From: a virus
Length of the DNA stretch: 34,653 bases
IMG/VR virus record: IMGVR_UViG_3300022213_000002
Reading direction: 5' to 3' (one strand)
Shown: positions 1,709 through 28,751 of the stretch, one piece after another
Numbering within the stretch: the stretch's first letter is position 1
Layout of the letters: every line of letters starts with the position of its first letter
Notes under the pieces: generated by a model
The model's input: only the letters and a program-made list of their open reading frames with translations
What the model was told of the DNA's origin: nothing
Databases searched by the model: none
Position numbers and translations under genes: made by a program

Positions 1709-3829
1709 ATGGCCGATGGTTTCAAGATCGGCGATGGCTACGTTCAGCTCAGACACAGCCTTGACCGGGCTGCGGTCAAGGCTGATGTCGACCGTGTGCT
1801 GGACTCGATCAACGGAAAGATCGGCATCGACGGCCGGTTCAGCCGAGCACAGATCAACCGTGCCCTCCAGGGTGCGCTTGGCGCGGGGGCGCCCGCCCTG
1901 CACCCCCGCGCCGAACTCGACGGCCGGTTCAGTCGGGCACAGGTGGCTCGCGCACTCAAAGAGGCCATGGGGGGGCGCCCCCCCGAGGTGAAGGTCGACG
2001 CCAACTTCAGGACCGCGCAGATCTACGAATCATTCCAGCACGCCACGAACCTCCCGATCTGGCGAATTGACGCCAGGGCGGATGTCGACTTCGGAGGCGT
2101 GTCCCGGGTGCGGAAGATCGCACAGGAGGAGGTGGTCGGGCCGCTGGCGCAGGCGCTTGGCGATCTGGGCGCCATCGCGCCGGAGGTCCGGACGCTCTTC
2201 GTCGGACTCGGCGCCGCCGCGGTCGCCCTGCTGACTCCCGCGATCGGGGCTGCGGTCAGCGGCGGCGTGACGGCCGGCGGGGTGATCGGTGTGGCCGCAC
2301 TCGGCGCGATGTTGCTCAAGGATAACGACCAGGTCAAGGAAGCCGCAGAAGCGCTGAGCAGGACCTGGCTCAGTAACCTCAAGGCTGCGGCCGGCCCGAT
2401 GATCCGACCCCTGAAGGACGCGCTGAAGGACGTTCAGGACGACGCGGACGTCATCGGCCCGAAACTACAAACCTCATTTTCGATCGTGGCGCAGTACATC
2501 GCCCCCCTCGCGAAAGGGCTACGCGGGGCGGTCGCAGAGTTCATCGGTCCGTTCAACGCCGGACTCAAACAAGCAAAGCCAGTCATCGATATGCTCAGTG
2601 ACGAGCTTCCAGAGGTCGGCAGGGCGATCGGCCAGACGTTTCAGATCCTCGCCTCGCACTCCGGCCAGGGGGCGGCCGCGCTCAAGCTCTTCCTGCGCAT
2701 ATTCGAAAACGGACTCAAGACCATAGCAACCGGCCTCGGCCTGCTGGGCGACCTGTTCCAGTACATGCTGGAGCAGGAGCTGCGCTGGCTGAACCTGTTC
2801 GCGAAGCTGCCCGGCAAGGTGGGTGACGCGTTCGAAGCGGAGGCGGATCGCGTTCGCAGGGTCCTCTATGACATGGACCACGCCGGGAGTGCGTTCGCGA
2901 GCACGGGCGACGCCATCAAGAGTCTGGGCAAGGCGTCCAGCGACGCTGCGAGCAAGGTTGACGAGCTCAAAAACGCGTTCGACAGCTTGTTTGGCATCGT
3001 CAAGGGTGTCGATGAAGCGACCATCGGCTACCGGCAGGCCCTGGCCGACATGAAGGAAGCGCTCGCCCAGGGTAAGCGCGGATTCGACGACGCCACGCAG
3101 GCGGGCAGGGACCACCACAACGCCCTCCTGGCCGCCGTCGAGGCGGCTCGGGCCATGTATGACGCCAACGTCGCGTCGGGCATGGGGTCCGACGAGGCCT
3201 CGGCTGCCTACCGTCGCCAGGTCGCCGAGCTCGCGGATGTGCTCCGCGCCATGGGGTATACCGAGGCCGAGATTCAGCGGCTGATCGGCAAATATTACGA
3301 GATCCCGACCAGGGCCGGAACGGTGGTCGTGGTGGAGGGAATCGAACCCGCGGTCCGCCAGATCGAGGGTATGGCGCGAGCGCTGAACAACTTGCACGAC
3401 AAGACCGTGTACGTGACCACCGTCGAGCAGGCCGTTGGCCAGGCCCCGAAGCGGAAGGCCATGGGCGGACTCGTCCGGGCCGCGGCCGGTCGCTTCCTTG
3501 ACGCGAAGGTCGGTGGCACGACGGTGCTCGCGGGTGAGAGCGGCACGGGGGGCGAGTACCTGATTCCCCTGCGGGGAATCTCGGCCGGCCGTGCCCGTTC
3601 CATGGCTGAGGATGTCGGACGCAACTATGGGTTCAGCACCGTGTCCACGGCGGGTACGGATGGCGCCACCGCGGCCGGACCGGTCGAGCTCACCGCGACC
3701 ATCATCATTGGCCAGGAGGTGATCCGGCGGGTGGTGCGTGCCGAGCTCGGTGCCGCCGCACCTCTGGTCGCCACACAGAATGTCGCGGGTGTCCAGCGCC
3801 GGCGGTACCTGAGCTCGGCCAGGGGGTAG
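1709..3829 (+). CDS. Tape measure protein
   Basis: 706-aa ORF after the chaperone pair. It has a Gly/Ala-rich hydrophobic segment and long helical A/L/E/K-rich stretches. Confidence 0.9.
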   Translation: MADGFKIGDGYVQLRHSLDRAAVKADVDRVLDSINGKIGIDGRFSRAQINRALQGALGAGAPALHPRAELDGRFSRAQVARALKEAMGGRPPEVKVDANFRTAQIYESFQHATNLPIWRIDARADVDFGGVSRVRKIAQEEVVGPLAQALGDLGAIAPEVRTLFVGLGAAAVALLTPAIGAAVSGGVTAGGVIGVAALGAMLLKDNDQVKEAAEALSRTWLSNLKAAAGPMIRPLKDALKDVQDDADVIGPKLQTSFSIVAQYIAPLAKGLRGAVAEFIGPFNAGLKQAKPVIDMLSDELPEVGRAIGQTFQILASHSGQGAAALKLFLRIFENGLKTIATGLGLLGDLFQYMLEQELRWLNLFAKLPGKVGDAFEAEADRVRRVLYDMDHAGSAFASTGDAIKSLGKASSDAASKVDELKNAFDSLFGIVKGVDEATIGYRQALADMKEALAQGKRGFDDATQAGRDHHNALLAAVEAARAMYDANVASGMGSDEASAAYRRQVAELADVLRAMGYTEAEIQRLIGKYYEIPTRAGTVVVVEGIEPAVRQIEGMARALNNLHDKTVYVTTVEQAVGQAPKRKAMGGLVRAAAGRFLDAKVGGTTVLAGESGTGGEYLIPLRGISAGRARSMAEDVGRNYGFSTVSTAGTDGATAAGPVELTATIIIGQEVIRRVVRAELGAAAPLVATQNVAGVQRRRYLSSARG

Positions 3830-3831
3830 GC

Positions 3832-4728
3832 ATGGATTGGATCTACTTCGGGACGCCGGGCGACCTGTCCAGGCTGGCGCGCCCCCGGGACGGCATTGAC
3901 TCTCCGCGCGACCAGCGCACCAGCGCGGTGACGCTGGCGGGGGGTGGGGCCGTGGTGCACGCGCTTCGGGGCGGCCTGCGCACCTACACGCTCCGGTGGA
4001 GCAGTCTGGAGGACACCCACGGGACCACCCTGGCCGTCCTTGAGGAGTACGCCTATGGGCTACGGGGGTCGGGGCCATTCGCACTCCTGGACCCCGGCAG
4101 GCTGAACCTGTTGACTACCAATCAGTCGTCAGGCACTGGCGCACTGGCCGATACCACGGGATTCACGGCCAGTGCGGGCACCCTGGCCAGCTCGACGGCC
4201 GTGGCCCGACGTGGTACCCGGTCGTTGCTCTGGACGCTGGCGGCCGGCACCACGGCCACGCTGGCGCTCGATGCCGCGGCATCGTGGTGGCCCGGAACCC
4301 CCGCGATGGAGGGGGTGTCCTACGCCCTGTCCCTGCAGGCGCTGGGCGGCGGGACCGACCTGGTCGTCGAGCTGACCGCCCAGCTGCAGTGGCTGGACGC
4401 GGCCGGCGTCACGCTGAGCACGTCCAGCGGCACGCCGGTGTCGACCAGCGGGGACTGGACGGCCGTCTCGGCGGTCGCCGTCGCGCCGGCTGGCGCGGTC
4501 TACCTGCTGCCGCTGCTGGCGGTTACGGGTGCCACGGTGGGCGCCGGTGCCACGGTGGCGCTCGATGAGCTGCAGTTGGAGTCGGGGGGCGTGGCGTCGG
4601 GCTGGCGGCCGGGGACCGGGGTGTACCCCGTGGCCATCGTGGGCGGCATGGACGAGTCGCAGCCCTGGGCCGATCCCGGGTACCGCGAGGGCGTCACGCT
4701 GATCCTTCAGGAGGTGGGGTCGCAGTGA
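3832..4728 (+). CDS. Minor tail protein (distal tail protein-like by position)
   Basis: 298-aa ORF starting 3 nt after the tape measure stop. Confidence 0.75.
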   Translation: MDWIYFGTPGDLSRLARPRDGIDSPRDQRTSAVTLAGGGAVVHALRGGLRTYTLRWSSLEDTHGTTLAVLEEYAYGLRGSGPFALLDPGRLNLLTTNQSSGTGALADTTGFTASAGTLASSTAVARRGTRSLLWTLAAGTTATLALDAAASWWPGTPAMEGVSYALSLQALGGGTDLVVELTAQLQWLDAAGVTLSTSSGTPVSTSGDWTAVSAVAVAPAGAVYLLPLLAVTGATVGAGATVALDELQLESGGVASGWRPGTGVYPVAIVGGMDESQPWADPGYREGVTLILQEVGSQ

Positions 4729-14296: not shown

Positions 14297-14875
14297 TCAC
14301 GCGAACGGGTCCTTGGCGGCCAGGAAGTGCTGCCAGTAGGTGCGGGCGATCGCCTTCTCCTCCGGCGTACTCACGGCCAGGAAGTACGGCGGGTTCTTCT
14401 GCGGATCCGCAGCCTGGCCGATGGACAGTCGCCCAACCACCATCGAGCCGGCGGTCTGGCCGGCGGCGCGCCGCTTGAGCGCCTCGCGGCACTGGTTGAC
14501 GACGCCGACCGCGGACAGGTACATGGCGTCGATCCGGTAGGGGATCTGGCTGACCTGCGTGTGGGGGATGGCGGGGCGCTTGTTGGGCGCGCCGCCCCAA
14601 TGCAGCGGACCACCATCGAGAACCACAACATCGGCCGTCATGCGATCGACCATCTCTCCCGGCCGCTGGTACGCCGGAACGGTCTCGATCCTGCTCGGGA
14701 TGATGAGCAGCAGGCGGCCGGCGTCGCTCACGCCGTCCGCCCGGTCGTACAGGTCGCCCATCCGGGGGCGGTTCGACTTGGGCGCCGGATCGCTGAACGG
14801 GTCATCTCCGCTGGGCGCCGCAAATGGATCACTGGCCGGGCTGGCCTGCGTCCGTGCTGCAAACGGGTCGGTCAT
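14297..14875 (-). CDS. Hypothetical protein with three N-terminal DPF motifs and a C-terminal DPFA
   Basis: 192-aa ORF with RBS AGGAG 7 nt before the ATG. Begins MTDPFA..SDPFA..DDPFS and ends KDPFA. Confidence 0.8.
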   Translation of the reverse strand: MTDPFAARTQASPASDPFAAPSGDDPFSDPAPKSNRPRMGDLYDRADGVSDAGRLLLIIPSRIETVPAYQRPGEMVDRMTADVVVLDGGPLHWGGAPNKRPAIPHTQVSQIPYRIDAMYLSAVGVVNQCREALKRRAAGQTAGSMVVGRLSIGQAADPQKNPPYFLAVSTPEEKAIARTYWQHFLAAKDPFA

Positions 14876-14886
14876 CGAGTGCTCCT

Positions 14887-14913
14887 GTCGAGTACGAGTG
14901 TCGAGTGTCGAGT
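14887..14913 (-). promoter_or_regulatory. Clustered heptamer repeats ACTCGAC (minus-strand sense) abutting the RBS of the 14875 gene
   Basis: gtcgagt occurs 3 times, plus one acgagt variant, within 27 bp immediately upstream of AGGAG. Confidence 0.45.
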
Positions 14914-14928
14914 AGGTGGGGCCGGGTG

Positions 14929-14983
14929 GGGTGGGGCATTCAGCAACCTAGGGCGACCAACCGGCCATCGCCATGCCCCACCC
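14929..14983 (-). ncRNA. Long hairpin (11-bp stem GGGTGGGGCAT/ATGCCCCACCC enclosing a 5-bp nested stem)
   Basis: Perfect complementary arms at 14929-14939 and 14973-14983. Nested GGCGA/TCGCC stem inside the loop. Confidence 0.5.
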
Positions 14984-15084
14984 TCTTGCCTGCCGTGCGA
15001 CCCGCGCCTCCGGCCGCGCGAACCGGAGACTTGCACCTGTGATCTTGCCTGGTAGTCACGGCCGGTACCCCGCCGCTCTATCCG

Positions 15085-15184
15085 TGCCCCGGTCGGGATT
15101 TGAACCCGAATCCTGCTGTCATTGTTCACCGCATGACGAGCGGTGGTTGCGCAACGCCACTCTTCCCATTTGAGCTACCGGGGC
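15085..15184 (-). tRNA. tRNA-like module S1 (100 nt), non-canonical: normal acceptor, D and T arms but an oversized central region
   Basis: Acceptor GCCCCGG/CCGGGGC, U8, D arm GCTC-AAATGGGAA-GAGT, T arm TCGGG-TTCAAAT-CCCGA, discriminator A. There are 49 nt between the D and T arms instead of about 23. Best central stem-loop is CACCGC-TCGTCAT-GCGGTG. Confidence 0.5.
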
Positions 15185-15187
15185 TCC

Positions 15188-15263
15188 TGGTGACGATACC
15201 GGCCAGCCAATTGCGGGTCGCCAGCGCCGATGCCGTCCCGCGGGACGGCCGGCCGGTATCGCC
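15188..15263 (-). ncRNA. Structured module S3 (76 nt, ends ACCA): 13-bp terminal helix plus an internal 7-bp/4-nt-loop hairpin
   Basis: GGCGATACCGGCC pairs with GGCCGGTATCGTC (one G-U pair). Internal hairpin GCCGTCC-CGCG-GGACGGC. It abuts S2 (0 nt gap) and S1 (3 nt gap). No T arm. Confidence 0.4.
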
Positions 15264-15356
15264 GTGGGCGGGCGGGAATCGAACCCGCGTCGGGCGGGTA
15301 GCGTTCGCCCGATCCCCCCAGGGAGCCGCTCTAGCCAGTTGTGCAACTGGCCCCAC
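15264..15356 (-). ncRNA. tRNA-like module S2: perfect T arm plus two long hairpins, no canonical cloverleaf
   Basis: T arm GCGGG-TTCGATT-CCCGC followed by CCGCCCA-C. Hairpins TCGGGCG-AACGCTACC-CGCCCGA (15290-15312) and GCCAGTT-GCAC-AACTGGC (15334-15351). Confidence 0.4.
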
Positions 15357-15388
15357 CCCACTCCCGCGCCGCGAACCGCCGGAGTGGA

Positions 15389-15413
15389 ACACCGCGAACG
15401 CTACCCGCGGTGT
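15389..15413 (-). terminator. 8-bp-stem hairpin just after the exonuclease stop; its 9-nt loop is complementary to the loop at 15297-15305
   Basis: ACACCGCG-GGTAGCGTT-CGCGGTGT (minus-strand sense), starting 9 nt after the TGA at 15425-15423. Confidence 0.5.
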
Positions 15414-15422
15414 CCAGTCATG

Positions 15423-17066
15423 TCAACTCGCCGCGGGGGCGGGCACGAATCCGCGCGCGCGATGCGCTTCCGCGTACGCCTGCAACTCGACTGACCAGGC
15501 GCCGCGCGCCGCCGCGTCGTGCCAGATCCGCGACAGGTCCGCCCGCTCGCGTGCGGTGTCGATGCGCCCGCGCCAGTCATCGGGCGCGGGCTCGGGCTCG
15601 GGCGCGGGCTCGGGCGCGGGCTCGGGCGCGGGCGGGGGGGCGGGTACCCGCGTCGCCCGCCTGCCCGTGGGCGCATCGGGCGCGGGCGCATCGCACGTGG
15701 GACAGATGCCCGCGCTCGCGGGCATGCCCGCTCCGCACCAGATGCACTGCCCGCTACCCGCCTGCGCGGGCATGGGGGCGAGCGCGGCGTTGAGTCCGCA
15801 CTCCGGGCACAGGGTGCCGGCTGCCCCGACCCCCGGCCGCACCCCGCACTGCGGGCACTGCGCGCTCGCCTGTCCTGTCTGCGCGGGCACTGCGGCGGGC
15901 ACTGCGGCGGGTACCCGCTCGTCGCCCGCGCACGCGGGACAGCGACCGGTGCCGTTCATGTCGCCCGGATTGGTCAGTTCGCCGCACCCCGTGCACCGCT
16001 TGCGCTTGCGCGCGCGCGGCGGGCGGGTGTCCATCGGCGCGGGCACGGGCGTGAGTATCGGATCGATCGCGCGCCTAAGGGGGAGTGCCTCCGCGATGAA
16101 TGCCTGCGCGGCCGCCTCAATGTCAGGGGGGACCGTGGACGCTGAGACCGGTGCGGCTCCGGCTGTGTCCGCCCCAGCCGGTTCCGGCCGGAGCGGCGCG
16201 CCGATCAGGCCCGCCTTGCGCATGTTGCGCACCTCGACCGCCCGCACAGCCGCCATCCGACCGGCCCTGATGTCGACCGGGTAGAGCGCGAAGTTCTGCG
16301 GCTCGCCCGCCGGCGCGTGCAGGACGTAGGCAACGTCAGAGCGGGTTGGCGCCGCCTCGATGTACTCGTCGCCTACCCACCAGTGTCGCATCATCTGGTA
16401 GATGGCAAGCTGGACCGACACGTAGAGACCCATGTATCGCAGGTTCTTGCCGGTCTTGATGTCGATGATGGCGCGACTGGCGTCACCACCGAGCGTCCCC
16501 ACGCGGTCGACGGTGCCCGCAGTGCCGCCACGGGGGTTGGCTGCGGTCAGATCGGCATCGAGCGTGGGCACGACACCGATGCGCTCGATACCGCCCGGTT
16601 CGAAACCGATCCGGTGTTCGGCCAGCAGTGCCCGGTACCGGTCCAGGTCGGGCTGGAAGCGCGGCGGGCACGCGACATCGGCTGCAGCCTCGCCCTGCTG
16701 GTCGTTGATCTGGTAGAGCTTGTGCATCGCGGTGCCCAGGTCGCGCCGCTCGTTGGCGCCGGCCGCGTGCTGCGCCGCGGCCACGATCTCGTTGAAGCGA
16801 TCCTTGTCGGTGGCGTAGTCCGTGGTGGACGCGGACAGGTACAGGCTGGGCGTGAGCGCGATGCCCCGGACTGCCATGGCCGCCTGCCACGCGGACAGGG
16901 AGTAGGTGTCGTCGAGCGTCTTGGCCAGGGTCGTCGCCCTGGTCCAGGAGACCAGCCGGCCGGTCTCCGGGTGCGGCAGGAGGTAGCGTCCCCACCGGTC
17001 GCGCTGGATCTTGCCCTCGGCGCCCTCAAGTGGCGCCCCGGGGTCGCCGAGTGGATCAAATGTCAT
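15423..17066 (-). CDS. PD-(D/E)XK (RecB/Cas4-like) exonuclease fused to three zinc ribbons, a PAPE linker and a small C-terminal domain
   Basis: Nuclease motif AIIDIKTGK with an upstream GTVDRVG. Three CxxC...CxxC pairs (CTGCG..CPAC, CPQCG..CPECG, CIWCG..CPTC). PAPEPAPEPAPEPEPAP linker. Confidence 0.8.
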   Translation of the reverse strand: MTFDPLGDPGAPLEGAEGKIQRDRWGRYLLPHPETGRLVSWTRATTLAKTLDDTYSLSAWQAAMAVRGIALTPSLYLSASTTDYATDKDRFNEIVAAAQHAAGANERRDLGTAMHKLYQINDQQGEAAADVACPPRFQPDLDRYRALLAEHRIGFEPGGIERIGVVPTLDADLTAANPRGGTAGTVDRVGTLGGDASRAIIDIKTGKNLRYMGLYVSVQLAIYQMMRHWWVGDEYIEAAPTRSDVAYVLHAPAGEPQNFALYPVDIRAGRMAAVRAVEVRNMRKAGLIGAPLRPEPAGADTAGAAPVSASTVPPDIEAAAQAFIAEALPLRRAIDPILTPVPAPMDTRPPRARKRKRCTGCGELTNPGDMNGTGRCPACAGDERVPAAVPAAVPAQTGQASAQCPQCGVRPGVGAAGTLCPECGLNAALAPMPAQAGSGQCIWCGAGMPASAGICPTCDAPAPDAPTGRRATRVPAPPPAPEPAPEPAPEPEPAPDDWRGRIDTARERADLSRIWHDAAARGAWSVELQAYAEAHRARGFVPAPAAS

Positions 17067-17184
17067 CGCCGTTCCTCCGATCGTCGTGCCGGTGCTGGCC
17101 GTGCGCCAGGATGTGCAGGCATGCCGCCGCGATGATGGCCAGCACCAGCATGCCCAGCAGTCCGAGCCCGTTCATGTGGATCAT
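17056..17184 (-). CDS. Micro-ORF, 42-aa single-TM membrane peptide
   Basis: MIHMNGLGLLGMLVLAIIAAACLHILAHGQHRHDDRRNGDDI. High GC3. Its end overlaps the exonuclease ATG by 11 nt. Below the length cut-off of the ORF track. Confidence 0.55.
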   Translation of the reverse strand: MIHMNGLGLLGMLVLAIIAAACLHILAHGQHRHDDRRNGDDI

Positions 17185-17221
17185 GAATGTCCTCTAATGT
17201 CCTCACGGTGAAGGTACTGCC
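17164..17221. repeat. 58-bp direct repeat copy A (53/58 identical to 17800-17857)
   Basis: Contains GAGGACAT twice, then ATGATCCACATGA (minus-strand sense), that is an RBS plus the first four codons MIHM. Confidence 0.9.
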
Positions 17222-17820
17222 CGCCCTCCGTCCCCATCGACCCGGGCGTCCCCGCTGACCCGGGCGCTCCCGCTGACCCGGGCGTCCCCGCTGACCCAGG
17301 CGTCCCCGCTGACCCGGGCATTCCCGCTGACCCGGGCGTCCCCGCTGACCCAGGCGTCCCCGCCGACCCAGGCGTCCCCGCCGACCTGGGCATTCCCGCT
17401 GACCTGGGCGTCCCCGCCGACCCAGGCGTCCCCGCTGACCTGGGCATTCCCGCTGACCTGGGCGTCCTCGCCGACCCAGGCGTCCCCGCCGACCCAGGCG
17501 CCCCCGCTGACCTGGGCATTCTCGCTGACCTGGGCATTCTCGACGACCCGGGCGCCCCCGCTGACCTGGGCATTCCCGCTGACCTGGGCGTTCCCATCGA
17601 CCCAGGCGTCCCCGGTCTGCGACAGGTTGTCCGGGCCGGCCACGATGCCGCCCAGGTGACCGGTCTTTACGTCGTCCCCGATGTCCCGCAGTGCCCGGAG
17701 TCGGAACAGGCCGCTATCCCCGTCCGCGATCAGCTCGTACTTGTCGATCATTTGCACTCCCAGCCTGGTTGCCAACGTCGCGTCCGCGGCGCCCCGGGCG
17801 AGCCCGGTCATGTGGATCAT
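17203..17820 (-). CDS. Hexapeptide-repeat (left-handed beta-helix type) protein
   Basis: N-terminal non-repeat domain ([43 protein letters not shown]) followed by about 20 units of [GS][DN]A[QWR]V[SG]. Confidence 0.8.
17236..17600. repeat. Tandem 18-bp DNA repeats (about 20 units, e.g. gacccgggcgtccccgct), the coding repeats of the hexapeptide protein
   Basis: Contiguous imperfect 18-mers with no spacers. All three minus-strand frames stay open through the array. Confidence 0.9.
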
Positions 17821-28562: not shown

Positions 28563-28751
28563 ATGGCTCGGCAGAAGCGTGGGGGCATGCCCGGAGGGTT
28601 CAAGTCCAAGGCGCAATGGCGCATGTTCTTCGCAAACCCGAAGTTGCGCAAGTATGCAAAGAAAGAGGCACGTAAGGTGATCGCGCGGGCGGGTAAGGTG
28701 ACCGGGTTCCGGTCACTGCCTGCGCGCAAGGGCGTTCGGAGGCGTACATGA
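28563..28751 (+). CDS. Small basic protein, 62 aa (KSKAQWRMFFAN motif, DUF3008-like from memory)
   Basis: ORF between terL and portal, with ATGA overlap to the portal start. Confidence 0.6.
   Translation: MARQKRGGMPGGFKSKAQWRMFFANPKLRKYAKKEARKVIARAGKVTGFRSLPARKGVRRRT

Follow-up and report, generated by a model that had tools for sequence, protein, structure and literature searches.

A non-coding locus with two tRNA-like modules

The stretch of DNA analysed here, IMG/VR record IMGVR_UViG_3300022213_000002 (34,653 nt, hereafter the window), is nearly the entire 34.7-kb metagenomic contig (ENA ERZ27296339 k141_2168993) of an uncultured soil phage. It has a G+C content of 69% and a gene content resembling that of siphovirus-type actinophages, including a tape measure protein, a minor tail protein, a terminase, a portal, and a major head protein, as well as a helicase, a primase-polymerase, RusA, an amidase, and glycosyl- and methyltransferases. 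Within the minus-strand replication/recombination module, positions 14876–15422 separate the gene for a Cas4/RecB-type exonuclease (phrog_466) upstream from the gene for what is called here the DPF protein (phrog_870, no assigned function; 14297–14875, minus strand) downstream. This locus holds two transfer RNA (tRNA)-like modules, S2 and S1, with a hairpin module, S3, between them (Table 1). S1 and S2 appear to be tRNA-derived and are unable to decode. The locus was compared with the contigs of ten DPF-protein homologues, 26 metagenome loci, several IMG/VR loci, and one contig from a metagenome-assembled genome (MAG), which are given L numbers where they need to be told apart.

A frame-specific GC plot revealed strong codon periodicity in both flanking genes (spread 0.3–0.5) and none over 15420–14880 (spread 0.17 or less). 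The open reading frames (ORFs) listed inside 14876–15422 were rejected as high-GC artefacts by their absent codon periodicity, which bears out the original prediction, made from the letters of the window, that this part of the minus strand is free of ORFs. ARAGORN at default settings identified no tRNA or transfer-messenger RNA (tmRNA) gene in the window, as expected from the claim that no canonical cloverleaf is present, and S1 was the sole match of the whole window at Rfam gathering thresholds. These standard tools do not make ordinary tRNAs of S1 or S2. The motif GGTTCRANYCC has four occurrences in the window, where 0.34 would be expected; S1 and S2 account for two of them. Both are genuine non-canonical tRNA-like modules placed head to tail in the non-coding stretch, and the spacings of 0 and 3 nt that had been proposed between the modules are present. 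Models obtained with relaxed or intron settings of ARAGORN overlapped each other (60–341-nt introns on both strands and a permuted tmRNA) and were discarded as artefacts of the loosened thresholds.

S1 has a perfect acceptor stem (GCCCCGG/CCGGGGC) with U8-A9, a D arm with GG, a T arm of TCGGG-TTCAAAT-CCCGA, and discriminator A. It therefore has all the stems of a canonical tRNA top half (7-bp acceptor, 5-bp T stem, TTCRANY loop). The position of the anticodon arm is occupied by an irregular, elongated arm of 43 nt. In the Rfam tRNA model (RF00005), the acceptor, U8-A9, D arm, and T arm of S1 align with 42.6 bits (threshold 29), and the anticodon-arm region spans 39 nt vs. the 13 expected; the threshold is passed only because the local alignment skips these 39 nt. 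The sole 7-nt loop in S1, UCGUCAU, has C at position 33 and caps a bulged arm of ~12 bp, about twice the normal length. The acceptor, U8, D arm, T arm, and 6-bp stem with loop TCGTCAT that had been predicted for S1 are thus all found in its sequence.

S2 pairs six of seven acceptor positions (GGGGTGG/CCGCCCA, with a G1·A72 mismatch) and has discriminator C and a perfect T arm (GCGGG-TTCGATT-CCCGC). A 7–8-bp hairpin with a 4-nt loop lies at the D position, and a 7-bp extra arm carries a 9-nt loop. These three features agree with the original prediction, which had placed the 5' end at 15356; the end moves to 15359, since the register with a (G·A) + 6-bp acceptor is fixed by homologues in the relatives L005 (C·A) and L050 (U-A). 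The centre of S2 has two mutually exclusive folds, a 4-bp stem with a UGGG tetraloop or a 4-bp stem with a closing mismatch and the loop GCGGCUC. The tetraloop fold has two compensatory pairs relative to L005. In the alternative loop, position 33 is C, position 37 is a pyrimidine (U), and the closing pair is mismatched; this loop would read GGC in the window and GGU in the L005 orthologue. When S2 of the window, L003, and L005 were folded jointly with RNAalifold, 30 pairs were recovered, eight of them with compensatory double changes. The five-helix design is retained between the window and L005, and free and constrained folds concur. A canonical anticodon arm (5-bp stem, 7-nt loop, U33, purine 37) is present in neither S2 nor S1.

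Some program calls could be read as unusual decoding tRNAs, with an intron, an expanded anticodon loop, or a selenocysteine (Sec)-like or allo-tRNA design used in recoding, which we consider very unlikely. ARAGORN reports S1 only with the intron option, as a forced tRNA-Arg(GCG) with a 9-nt intron; that model demands an unstructured 24-nt variable region, and we know of no short-intron tRNA splicing system in bacteria. At default settings, under which the window itself yields nothing, the program reports a tRNA-Thr(GGU) for the L005 homologue of S2 and, for the L003 copy, a tRNA whose anticodon has 2 nt. The tRNA-Thr call was rejected based on its 1-72 mismatch, a stem mismatch, pyrimidine 37, a class-II extra arm, and the lack of a score in the Rfam tRNA model, which lists no match for S2 of the window either. 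The would-be anticodon of S2 varies between orthologues, the window copy is without U33 and purine 37, and homologue bodies range from 43 to 110 nt in length. A weak score to tRNA-Sec (RF01852; 15361–15264, 26.6 bits, E = 0.007, threshold 47; 18 bits in L005) comes with no UCA anticodon loop and with a 7/5 rather than an 8/5 design. Allo-tRNAs, which have been reported in phages too, combine a real anticodon loop with an acceptor/T split of 8/4 or 9/3 (PMC5389517). S2 resembles them and tRNA-Sec in its long D-type hairpin with a 4-nt loop and its long extra arm but differs in its 7/5 stems, its terminal mismatch, and the missing canonical anticodon loop; S2-type elements have the 7/5 design in general, with a 1-72 mismatch in the window and L005 and a U1-A72 pair in L050.

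S1 and S2 might belong to a larger known RNA, for which a permuted tmRNA in two pieces, a Y RNA of the YrlA type, and an ornate RNA resembling GOLLD or ROOL were considered; we regard this as highly improbable. With its threshold lowered to 80%, ARAGORN gives a permuted tmRNA over S2–S1, and the last 28 nt of S2 (15264–15291) match the 3' ends of cluster-M mycobacteriophage tmRNA genes (Aziz, GenevaB15; L048 601–629) with 93% identity. The S2 T arm and 3' strand (GACGCGGGTTCGATTCCCGCC..CAC) are near these phage tmRNA 3' ends, neither encodes CCA, and CG follows both. Unlike a tmRNA, S2 forms a closed unit of 96 nt that supplies its own 5' strand, and it has no G3·U70 (the window pair is G3-C70), credible tag frame, or pseudoknots. 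In the permuted model, moreover, the proposed 5' tRNA domain is unpaired with the 3' strand of S2, S1 has a perfect acceptor stem of its own, and the tag peptide ends in ...GWSP and is labelled 'not identified' by ARAGORN. The likeness hints at the origin of the S2 top half (its acceptor and T stems) and not at tmRNA identity. Several cluster-M-type phage records leave the tmRNA unannotated at the matched spot.

Some YrlA RNAs occur in mycobacteriophages, and the YrlA model links the T arm of S2 with the D arm of S1, at 22.1 bits vs. a threshold of 69. According to PMC4201824, YrlA RNAs are non-decoding tRNA mimics that are bound by Ro60 and widespread in bacteria. S1 and S2 are likewise non-decoding and share T-arm and D-arm mimicry, but the acceptor-like stem of YrlA is closed by a loop and opens on the anticodon side (Rfam model structure), whereas the acceptors of S1 and S2 are open with free ends. 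A Pfam scan of ~24 window proteins, which covered part of the small ORFs, detected no Ro60/TROVE protein. No tmRNA-family, GOLLD, or ROOL model matched the window at gathering score, and none was listed for 14700–15600 at E up to 10; two tRNA-clan matches that scored below 42.6 bits were hidden by clan competition. The suggestion of a large ornate RNA of the GOLLD or ROOL type was dropped on this account.

Related loci and a conserved acceptor/T half

Comparison of the locus DNA with 50,697 phage records returned no similarity matches, and tblastn searches with the DPF protein and with a diverged family member returned none. In IMG/VR, an exact pattern of the S1 D arm had no match; protein searches there succeeded when based on alignments, and a single-sequence query returned nothing. 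A genome collection yielded one MAG contig only, without the element near the gene. L001–L003 and L013 hardly differ from the window. L003 departs from it by substitutions at 6 of 547 locus positions, of which four are clearly unpaired and two lie in local hairpin loops yet are paired in the global minimum free energy fold; they are too few to serve as evidence. L005 (53% protein identity) is the sole diverged relative with the same S2...S1 order, with a gap of 471 nt. S1 of L005 retains only the acceptor stem (GCCCCGG), the T arm, and the discriminator; its D arm is lost and its body measures 43 nt instead of 66.

Elements at the same position and on the same strand, upstream of the DPF gene, were identified in L005, L011, L028 (two), L031, L032, L035, L036, L038, and L043. 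In most of them the 7-bp acceptor and the 5-bp T stem are perfectly paired and a TTCRA loop and a discriminator are present; those of L005 and L011 pair six of seven acceptor positions. Their bodies of 71–108 nt have no shared design, and their acceptors are mostly dissimilar (GGTACCG, AGTCACG, GGGAAGT, GGGGGTG, CGGAGAC, GGGGGGC, and others). A strict scan for 7/7 acceptor pairs, 5/5 T-stem pairs, and TTCRA in 173 kb of non-redundant loci plus the window found 12 elements; 100 dinucleotide shuffles averaged 0.2, and none gave more than 2. Strict elements other than S1 of the window are all on the strand used to orient the loci. Because MAFFT left the 5' strands of full-length elements unaligned, a trimmed construct (9 nt, an A10 linker, and 30 nt) was used. 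In the trimmed alignment, pairing holds in 97.5% of cells, and both partners have changed in 11 of the 12 pairs; these values are partly circular, as the elements were chosen for pairing, and the shuffle test is the independent statistic. In these elements the acceptor/T half is maintained while the decoding half changes freely or is replaced.

This set of elements includes some that are nearly tRNAs. The L031 element resembles tRNA-Gln(UUG), with 46.5 bits and a G at position 33, and element L043d has 59.6 bits and a 6-nt anticodon loop. L035 and L043b resemble S1: their acceptor, D, and T arms are normal, and the arm at the anticodon position is greatly elongated. Decoding and non-decoding elements are mixed in the genome of the IMG/VR relative L043, where four occur at 725–1255 and 2216–2287: a canonical tRNA-Asn (65.9 bits), a tRNA with an anticodon arm expanded to ~35 nt (44.8 bits), an element with the top half only, and the 59.6-bit tRNA, which is located 175 nt upstream of the DPF gene.

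Such a graded series from tRNA to top-half-only element, with near-canonical tRNAs at the same place in L031 and L043 and no element at all in several relatives, could be the outcome of decay, in which case S1 and S2 would be functionless relics of a former phage tRNA cluster. We consider this unlikely. Neutral loss should strike the acceptor and T stems equally, yet those 12 pairs are intact in the 12 strict elements. There are many compensatory changes in the stems, including the eight pairs of S2 relative to L005, and bodies have been replaced by stable new hairpins. Decaying genes had been among the original proposals and fit poorly with about a dozen diverged elements whose stems are still paired despite sequence change and whose bodies are wholly replaced.

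The top halves of S1 and S2 also recur on other contigs. L005, L051 (twice), and L052 carry the S1-type half on differing bodies; a pattern search of IMG/VR located it as GCCYCGG...GGGTTCRAATCCCGG-CCGGGGC-A in the last two, which are other phage contigs. The elements of L051 (5484–5621 and 6072–6211) and L052 (244–387) are tRNA-like RNAs of 138–144 nt with the S1 acceptor and T arm. They have a conserved D-like hairpin (CGGCGTGGTGGGAACACGCA) in common, unrelated middles of 75–80 nt, and each a same-strand ORF downstream, and they look like a distinct family of long tRNA-like RNAs. The S2-type half, NGGGTGG/CCRCYCA-C, is found in the window, L005, and L050, where it takes the form UGGGUGG...CCACCCA-C. 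Three tRNA-like genes are clustered at 3718–4152 (minus strand) of L050. Two are labelled tRNA-??? by ARAGORN, with 8-nt anticodon loops and four-base anticodons (CAGG and UCGG), and could be quadruplet decoders or more non-decoding mimics; the third has the S2-type top half, a shortened anticodon arm, and 44.9 bits to the Rfam tRNA model.

Copies of T arms and 3' acceptor strands might in principle derive from integration, as integrases that target tRNA genes duplicate exactly this part, and the elements would then be host tRNA 3'-end copies serving as a phage attachment site (attP). Fragments of tRNA genes are frequent beside integrated elements (PMC9897764). This origin is extremely improbable here: each element has a matching 5' acceptor strand 70–100 nt upstream that an attP does not need, no integrase was found among the scanned window proteins, and the locus lies in the replication/recombination module downstream of a promoter motif.

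Promoter motif, proposed leader, and neighbouring genes

A sigma-70/HrdB-type promoter motif precedes the array (Table 1). Its −35 hexamer overlaps the exonuclease stop codon, and transcription is predicted to start at ~15391. The pattern TTGAC-N18-TANNNT has this one match on both strands of the 34.6-kb window (0.03 expected; 0.00 for the exact TAGCGT form). TTGACN-17-TAGCGT is present at the same position in L005, L036, and L038, with variants in L032 and L035 (TTGCCC-17-TAATGT/TAGCCT) and in the corynephage BFK20 (TTGCGC-17-TAGCGT; L046 ~3466–3494), which has the same synteny of helicase, exonuclease, and gp39 and no tRNA-like element. A simple sigma-70 scan missed the motif because TAGCGT fits TATAAT at three of six positions; it was found by comparing loci. 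The inverted repeat at the −10 hexamer may be an operator or may form a hairpin ending the exonuclease transcript. Inverted repeats overlapping or following the −10 hexamer also occur in L032, L035, L036, and L038, and 15389–15426 may be a regulated early promoter with an operator.

Table 1. Positions of features in the tRNA-like locus of the window, in order of the minus strand, and of the acidic ORFs in four relatives
Feature	Position	Strand	Description	Basis
Promoter motif, sigma-70/HrdB-type	15398–15426	−	TTGACA 15426–15421, 17-nt spacer, TAGCGT 15403–15398	Consensus
Inverted repeat ACACCGCG / CGCGGTGT	15389–15413	−	Brackets the −10 hexamer	Read from sequence
Predicted 5'-terminal leader hairpin	15358–15387	−	CCACTCC...GGAGTGG; last 2 nt overlap the first 2 of S2	RNAfold
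S2	15264–15359	−	96-nt class-II-shaped tRNA-like RNA	Folds; conservation in L003, L005, and L050
S3	15185–15263	−	Branched 17–18-bp hairpin 15263–15192, then ACCA 15191–15188, then GGA	RNAfold, −52.3 kcal/mol
S1	15085–15184	−	100-nt tRNA-like RNA	Rfam tRNA score; conserved acceptor/T half
Two hairpins right after S1	15008–15083	−	15083–15051, and CTCCGG...CCGGAG 15028–15008	RNAfold
Long hairpin	14929–14983	−	11-bp outer stem GGGTGGGGCAT...ATGCCCCACCC, no U tract	Folding
G-poor, C/A-rich leader	14876–14921	−	Four CTCGAC(A) copies, then AGGAG 14886–14882	Composition, repeats
Acidic ORF, L032	~2400–2606			
Acidic ORF, L035	~2403–2594			
Acidic ORF, L036	~2421–2564			
Acidic ORF, L038	~2372–2603			

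S3 begins on the first base past S2. It had been proposed as a third tRNA-like module of 76 nt that ends in ACCA and folds as a 13-bp helix. The length, the ACCA end, and the spacings hold, and the helix is longer and branched. Models of the Rfam tRNA clan have no match to S3 at E up to 10, its tail is GCCA in L003, and L005 has three unrelated hairpins (147 nt) in its place. S3 is consequently treated as a spacer hairpin and not as a tRNA-like module.

Downstream of S1, a hairpin begins 1–6 nt past the discriminator in all related leaders. The predicted 11-bp long-range hairpin is present in the window, and comparable long hairpins precede the leader in L005, L028, and L043. AGGAG is the ribosome-binding site of the DPF gene, which opens with ATG at 14875. 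All relatives have a G-poor, CA-rich stretch with short repeats immediately ahead of this site; the repeats are of the CGACAC or CAACG kind in L005, L028, L032, L035, L036, and L038, and they may be translational enhancers or protein-binding sites. The repeat units, in three or four tandem copies, are CTCGACA in the window, CACCCGA in L005 (3955–3990), and CAACGT in L036 and L038 (2765–2795). L031 (100–140), L032 (2737–2775), and L035 (2762–2802) share a hairpin of three tiers (CCCC..GGC..GAC..GUC..GCC..GGGG; internal loops ACA/ACAG) on the downstream side of the element; it shows compensatory changes and is a second conserved leader structure, one that is not in the window.

Neither a promoter-like sequence between the RNA modules and the start of the DPF gene nor an intrinsic-terminator-like site was found, which means that transcription of the DPF operon has to pass through the RNA array. 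In four relatives (L032, L035, L036, and L038), a small and very acidic ORF (D/E-rich, ~45–80 amino acids) occupies the place held by S2 and S3 in the window and L005. The presence of this ORF between promoter and element indicates that the element is internal to a polycistronic unit. With a conserved host-type promoter motif ahead of it, we give about an even chance that the locus is the 5' leader of an operon that starts with the DPF gene. The promoter and the position of the array in an operon leader formed no part of the original prediction and are added here.

The exonuclease shares ~30–35% identity with exonucleases from phages of Gordonia, Streptomyces, Mycobacterium, and Corynebacterium. 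The DPF protein has a DPF motif at each end, a disordered N-terminus, and a beta-rich core, and its relatives bear long P/Q-rich extensions. Its AlphaFold2 model (mean predicted local distance difference test score of 78.7) has structural matches only to uncharacterised actinophage proteins, including gp39 of BFK20, which likewise adjoins an exonuclease gene. The model has no significant match in the PDB and hence offers no clue to a link with the RNA. Weak matches to SSB, Whirly, and DUF669-like folds leave room for the idea that the protein may be the recombination partner of the exonuclease. Elsewhere in the window, a 205-amino-acid repeat protein (YdcK beta-solenoid/bactofilin-like; 17203–17820, minus strand) is encoded between the helicase and exonuclease genes and is overlapped by a second repetitive ORF at 17181–17597. 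The apparent gap between the terminase and portal genes contains a short and very basic reading frame (MARQKRGGMPGGFKSKAQW...; 28563–28748, plus strand). The T-loop motif GGTTCAAGTCC at 28597–28607 lies inside this frame, has no T stem, and was rejected as a chance match.

Possible processing and trans-acting roles of the modules

The coaxial 12-bp acceptor/T half and the T loop of a tRNA are read by RNase P, 3'-end nucleases, the CCA-adding enzyme, and T-loop modification enzymes. The conserved top half, the leader position, and the abutting neighbours of S1 and S2 are best explained if they are processing modules. We hold with moderate confidence that these tRNA-derived, non-decoding modules act in the leader in a manner similar to the t-elements of plant mitochondria. 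Beside the demonstrated structure, conservation, promoter motif, non-coding nature, and missing canonical anticodon arm, we infer transcription, cleavage, and the stability and roles of the released RNAs, as follows. RNase P of the host would cut 5' of S2 (15359) and of S1 (15184), and possibly at the base of the S3 hairpin, which has ACCA on its 3' side. Since the modules abut, one cut would yield both ends, with each cut also generating the 3' end of the preceding module. A cut or trimming past the S1 discriminator (15085) would free an mRNA that begins with hairpins and the CA-rich leader. The products would be two stable tRNA-shaped RNAs of ~100 nt and a matured mRNA of the DPF operon, by the same logic as plant mitochondrial t-elements and co-transcripts of tRNA and mRNA.

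The t-elements were found through the motif GGTTCRANYCC and are non-canonical cloverleaves in mRNA leaders and trailers that direct RNase P and RNase Z cuts, create mRNA ends, and accumulate as small RNAs (PMC1920247). They receive a CCA tail and base modifications but are not aminoacylated (bioRxiv 10.1101/2024.09.09.612099). S1 and S2 have the same motif, a non-canonical body, and a leader position, with the promoter motif upstream and the DPF gene downstream. The resemblance is one of analogy and not homology; the system here belongs to a bacteriophage of a high-GC actinobacterium, and two modules and a hairpin module abut.

Other systems share parts of this arrangement. The E. coli tufB operon and the tRNA region of phage T4, with its stable species 1 and 2 RNAs, have tRNA units that are co-transcribed with protein genes and released by RNase P. 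As in phage tRNA clusters, some relatives of the window hold canonical or near-canonical tRNAs beside mimics (L043 and L031), whereas S1 and S2 cannot decode and only the top half is conserved. In the tRNA-miRNA transcripts of the gammaherpesvirus MHV68, a tRNA-like handle is cleaved by RNase P and RNase Z. The mascRNA of MALAT1 is another tRNA-like handle cut by these enzymes (PMC8457004). Both resemble the array in that a tRNA-like unit abutting stable hairpins or a long RNA serves as the cleavage handle. The mascRNA model is the best Rfam match for the L005 homologue of S1 (21.9 bits) and for an L051 element (29 bits), below its threshold of 42.5; mascRNA and MHV68 are eukaryotic or viral nuclear systems, and sub-threshold scores do not confer family membership. 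The processing or mimic kind of element is known, and a phage-borne, promoter-proximal family with only the top half conserved appears to be undescribed in the literature searched.

Several observations weigh against processing modules in the leader. Between the window and L003, the locus has changed about as much as adjacent coding DNA (6 of 520 positions), with no extra conservation among close relatives. In L006, L007, and L010, a set of relatives both closer and more distant, the exonuclease and DPF genes adjoin directly with no RNA locus between them, so the element is dispensable and an optional insert. There is no DPF gene at L050, L051, and L052, where the S1- and S2-type halves occur with nearly the same acceptors. 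The fixed acceptor sequence across contexts suggests more constraint than a pure processing signal would need; fixed acceptors on unrelated bodies and in unrelated contexts point to a sequence-specific and possibly trans-acting role. As compared across orthologues, the whole S2 architecture is retained, again beyond what a cutting signal should require. Finally, no cultured relative with the locus was found, and the phage is known from metagenomes only.

These points lend themselves to a second interpretation, in which the excised anticodon-less RNAs are functional trans-acting mimics that bind or titrate a host factor reading the acceptor/T half and in which the leader position merely provides early expression. 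Candidate targets would be an acceptor-end-modifying toxin of the MenT/AbiEii type, an aminoacyl-tRNA-dependent transferase, a synthetase, the CCA-adding enzyme, or EF-Tu. We consider this interpretation possible though rather doubtful. It would account for GCCYCGG/CCGGGGC-A being kept in the window, L005, L051 (both copies), and L052 while bodies differ by 40–110 nt, for NGGGTGG/CCRCYCA-C being kept in the window, L005, and L050, for the presence of both halves at loci without a DPF gene, and for the conservation of the entire S2 architecture. The only strong host-type promoter motif of the window lies ahead of the locus and would fit an abundant early RNA. Other elements upstream of DPF genes, however, have unrelated acceptors and discriminators (A, G, U, and C), so that there is no single conserved identity. 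No tRNA-related enzyme or partner gene was found among the ~30 window proteins scanned, no target can be named, and trans action would require the same processing steps as leader processing.

The broader proposal that soil actinophages encode families of anticodon-less mimics, which the tRNA-processing enzymes of the host would cut out of early leaders and which would act in trans, is more doubtful still. At least two top-half identities, GCCYCGG...CCGGGGC-A and NGGGUGG...CCRCYCA-C, would then exist, a division that is put forward with equal reserve. Such mimics might possibly be decoys or sponges for acceptor-reading host factors or defence toxins, and the variable body could be a payload on a tRNA scaffold. 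The original idea of decoy or non-canonical tRNAs survives in the form of an anticodon-less mimic; the roles it had offered, countering anticodon nucleases or recoding, do not fit such a mimic.

Phage tRNA genes are usually attributed to codon usage or to the replacement of host tRNAs destroyed by defence systems. Here, a phage lineage retains the tRNA half that is read by processing enzymes and drops the half that decodes, in the promoter-proximal leader of an operon. Because these elements are invisible to ARAGORN at default settings or are mislabelled (as 'tRNA-???' or as tRNA-Thr with a long extra arm), actinophage and virome annotation pipelines would miss or mis-file them. If leader processing is their true role, they would be the bacterial-virus counterpart of plant mitochondrial t-elements and of the logic of tRNA punctuation, and a natural version of the tRNA scaffold used by RNA engineers. 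If they instead act in trans, they would represent a new class of phage non-coding RNA, possibly one that functions in counter-defence.

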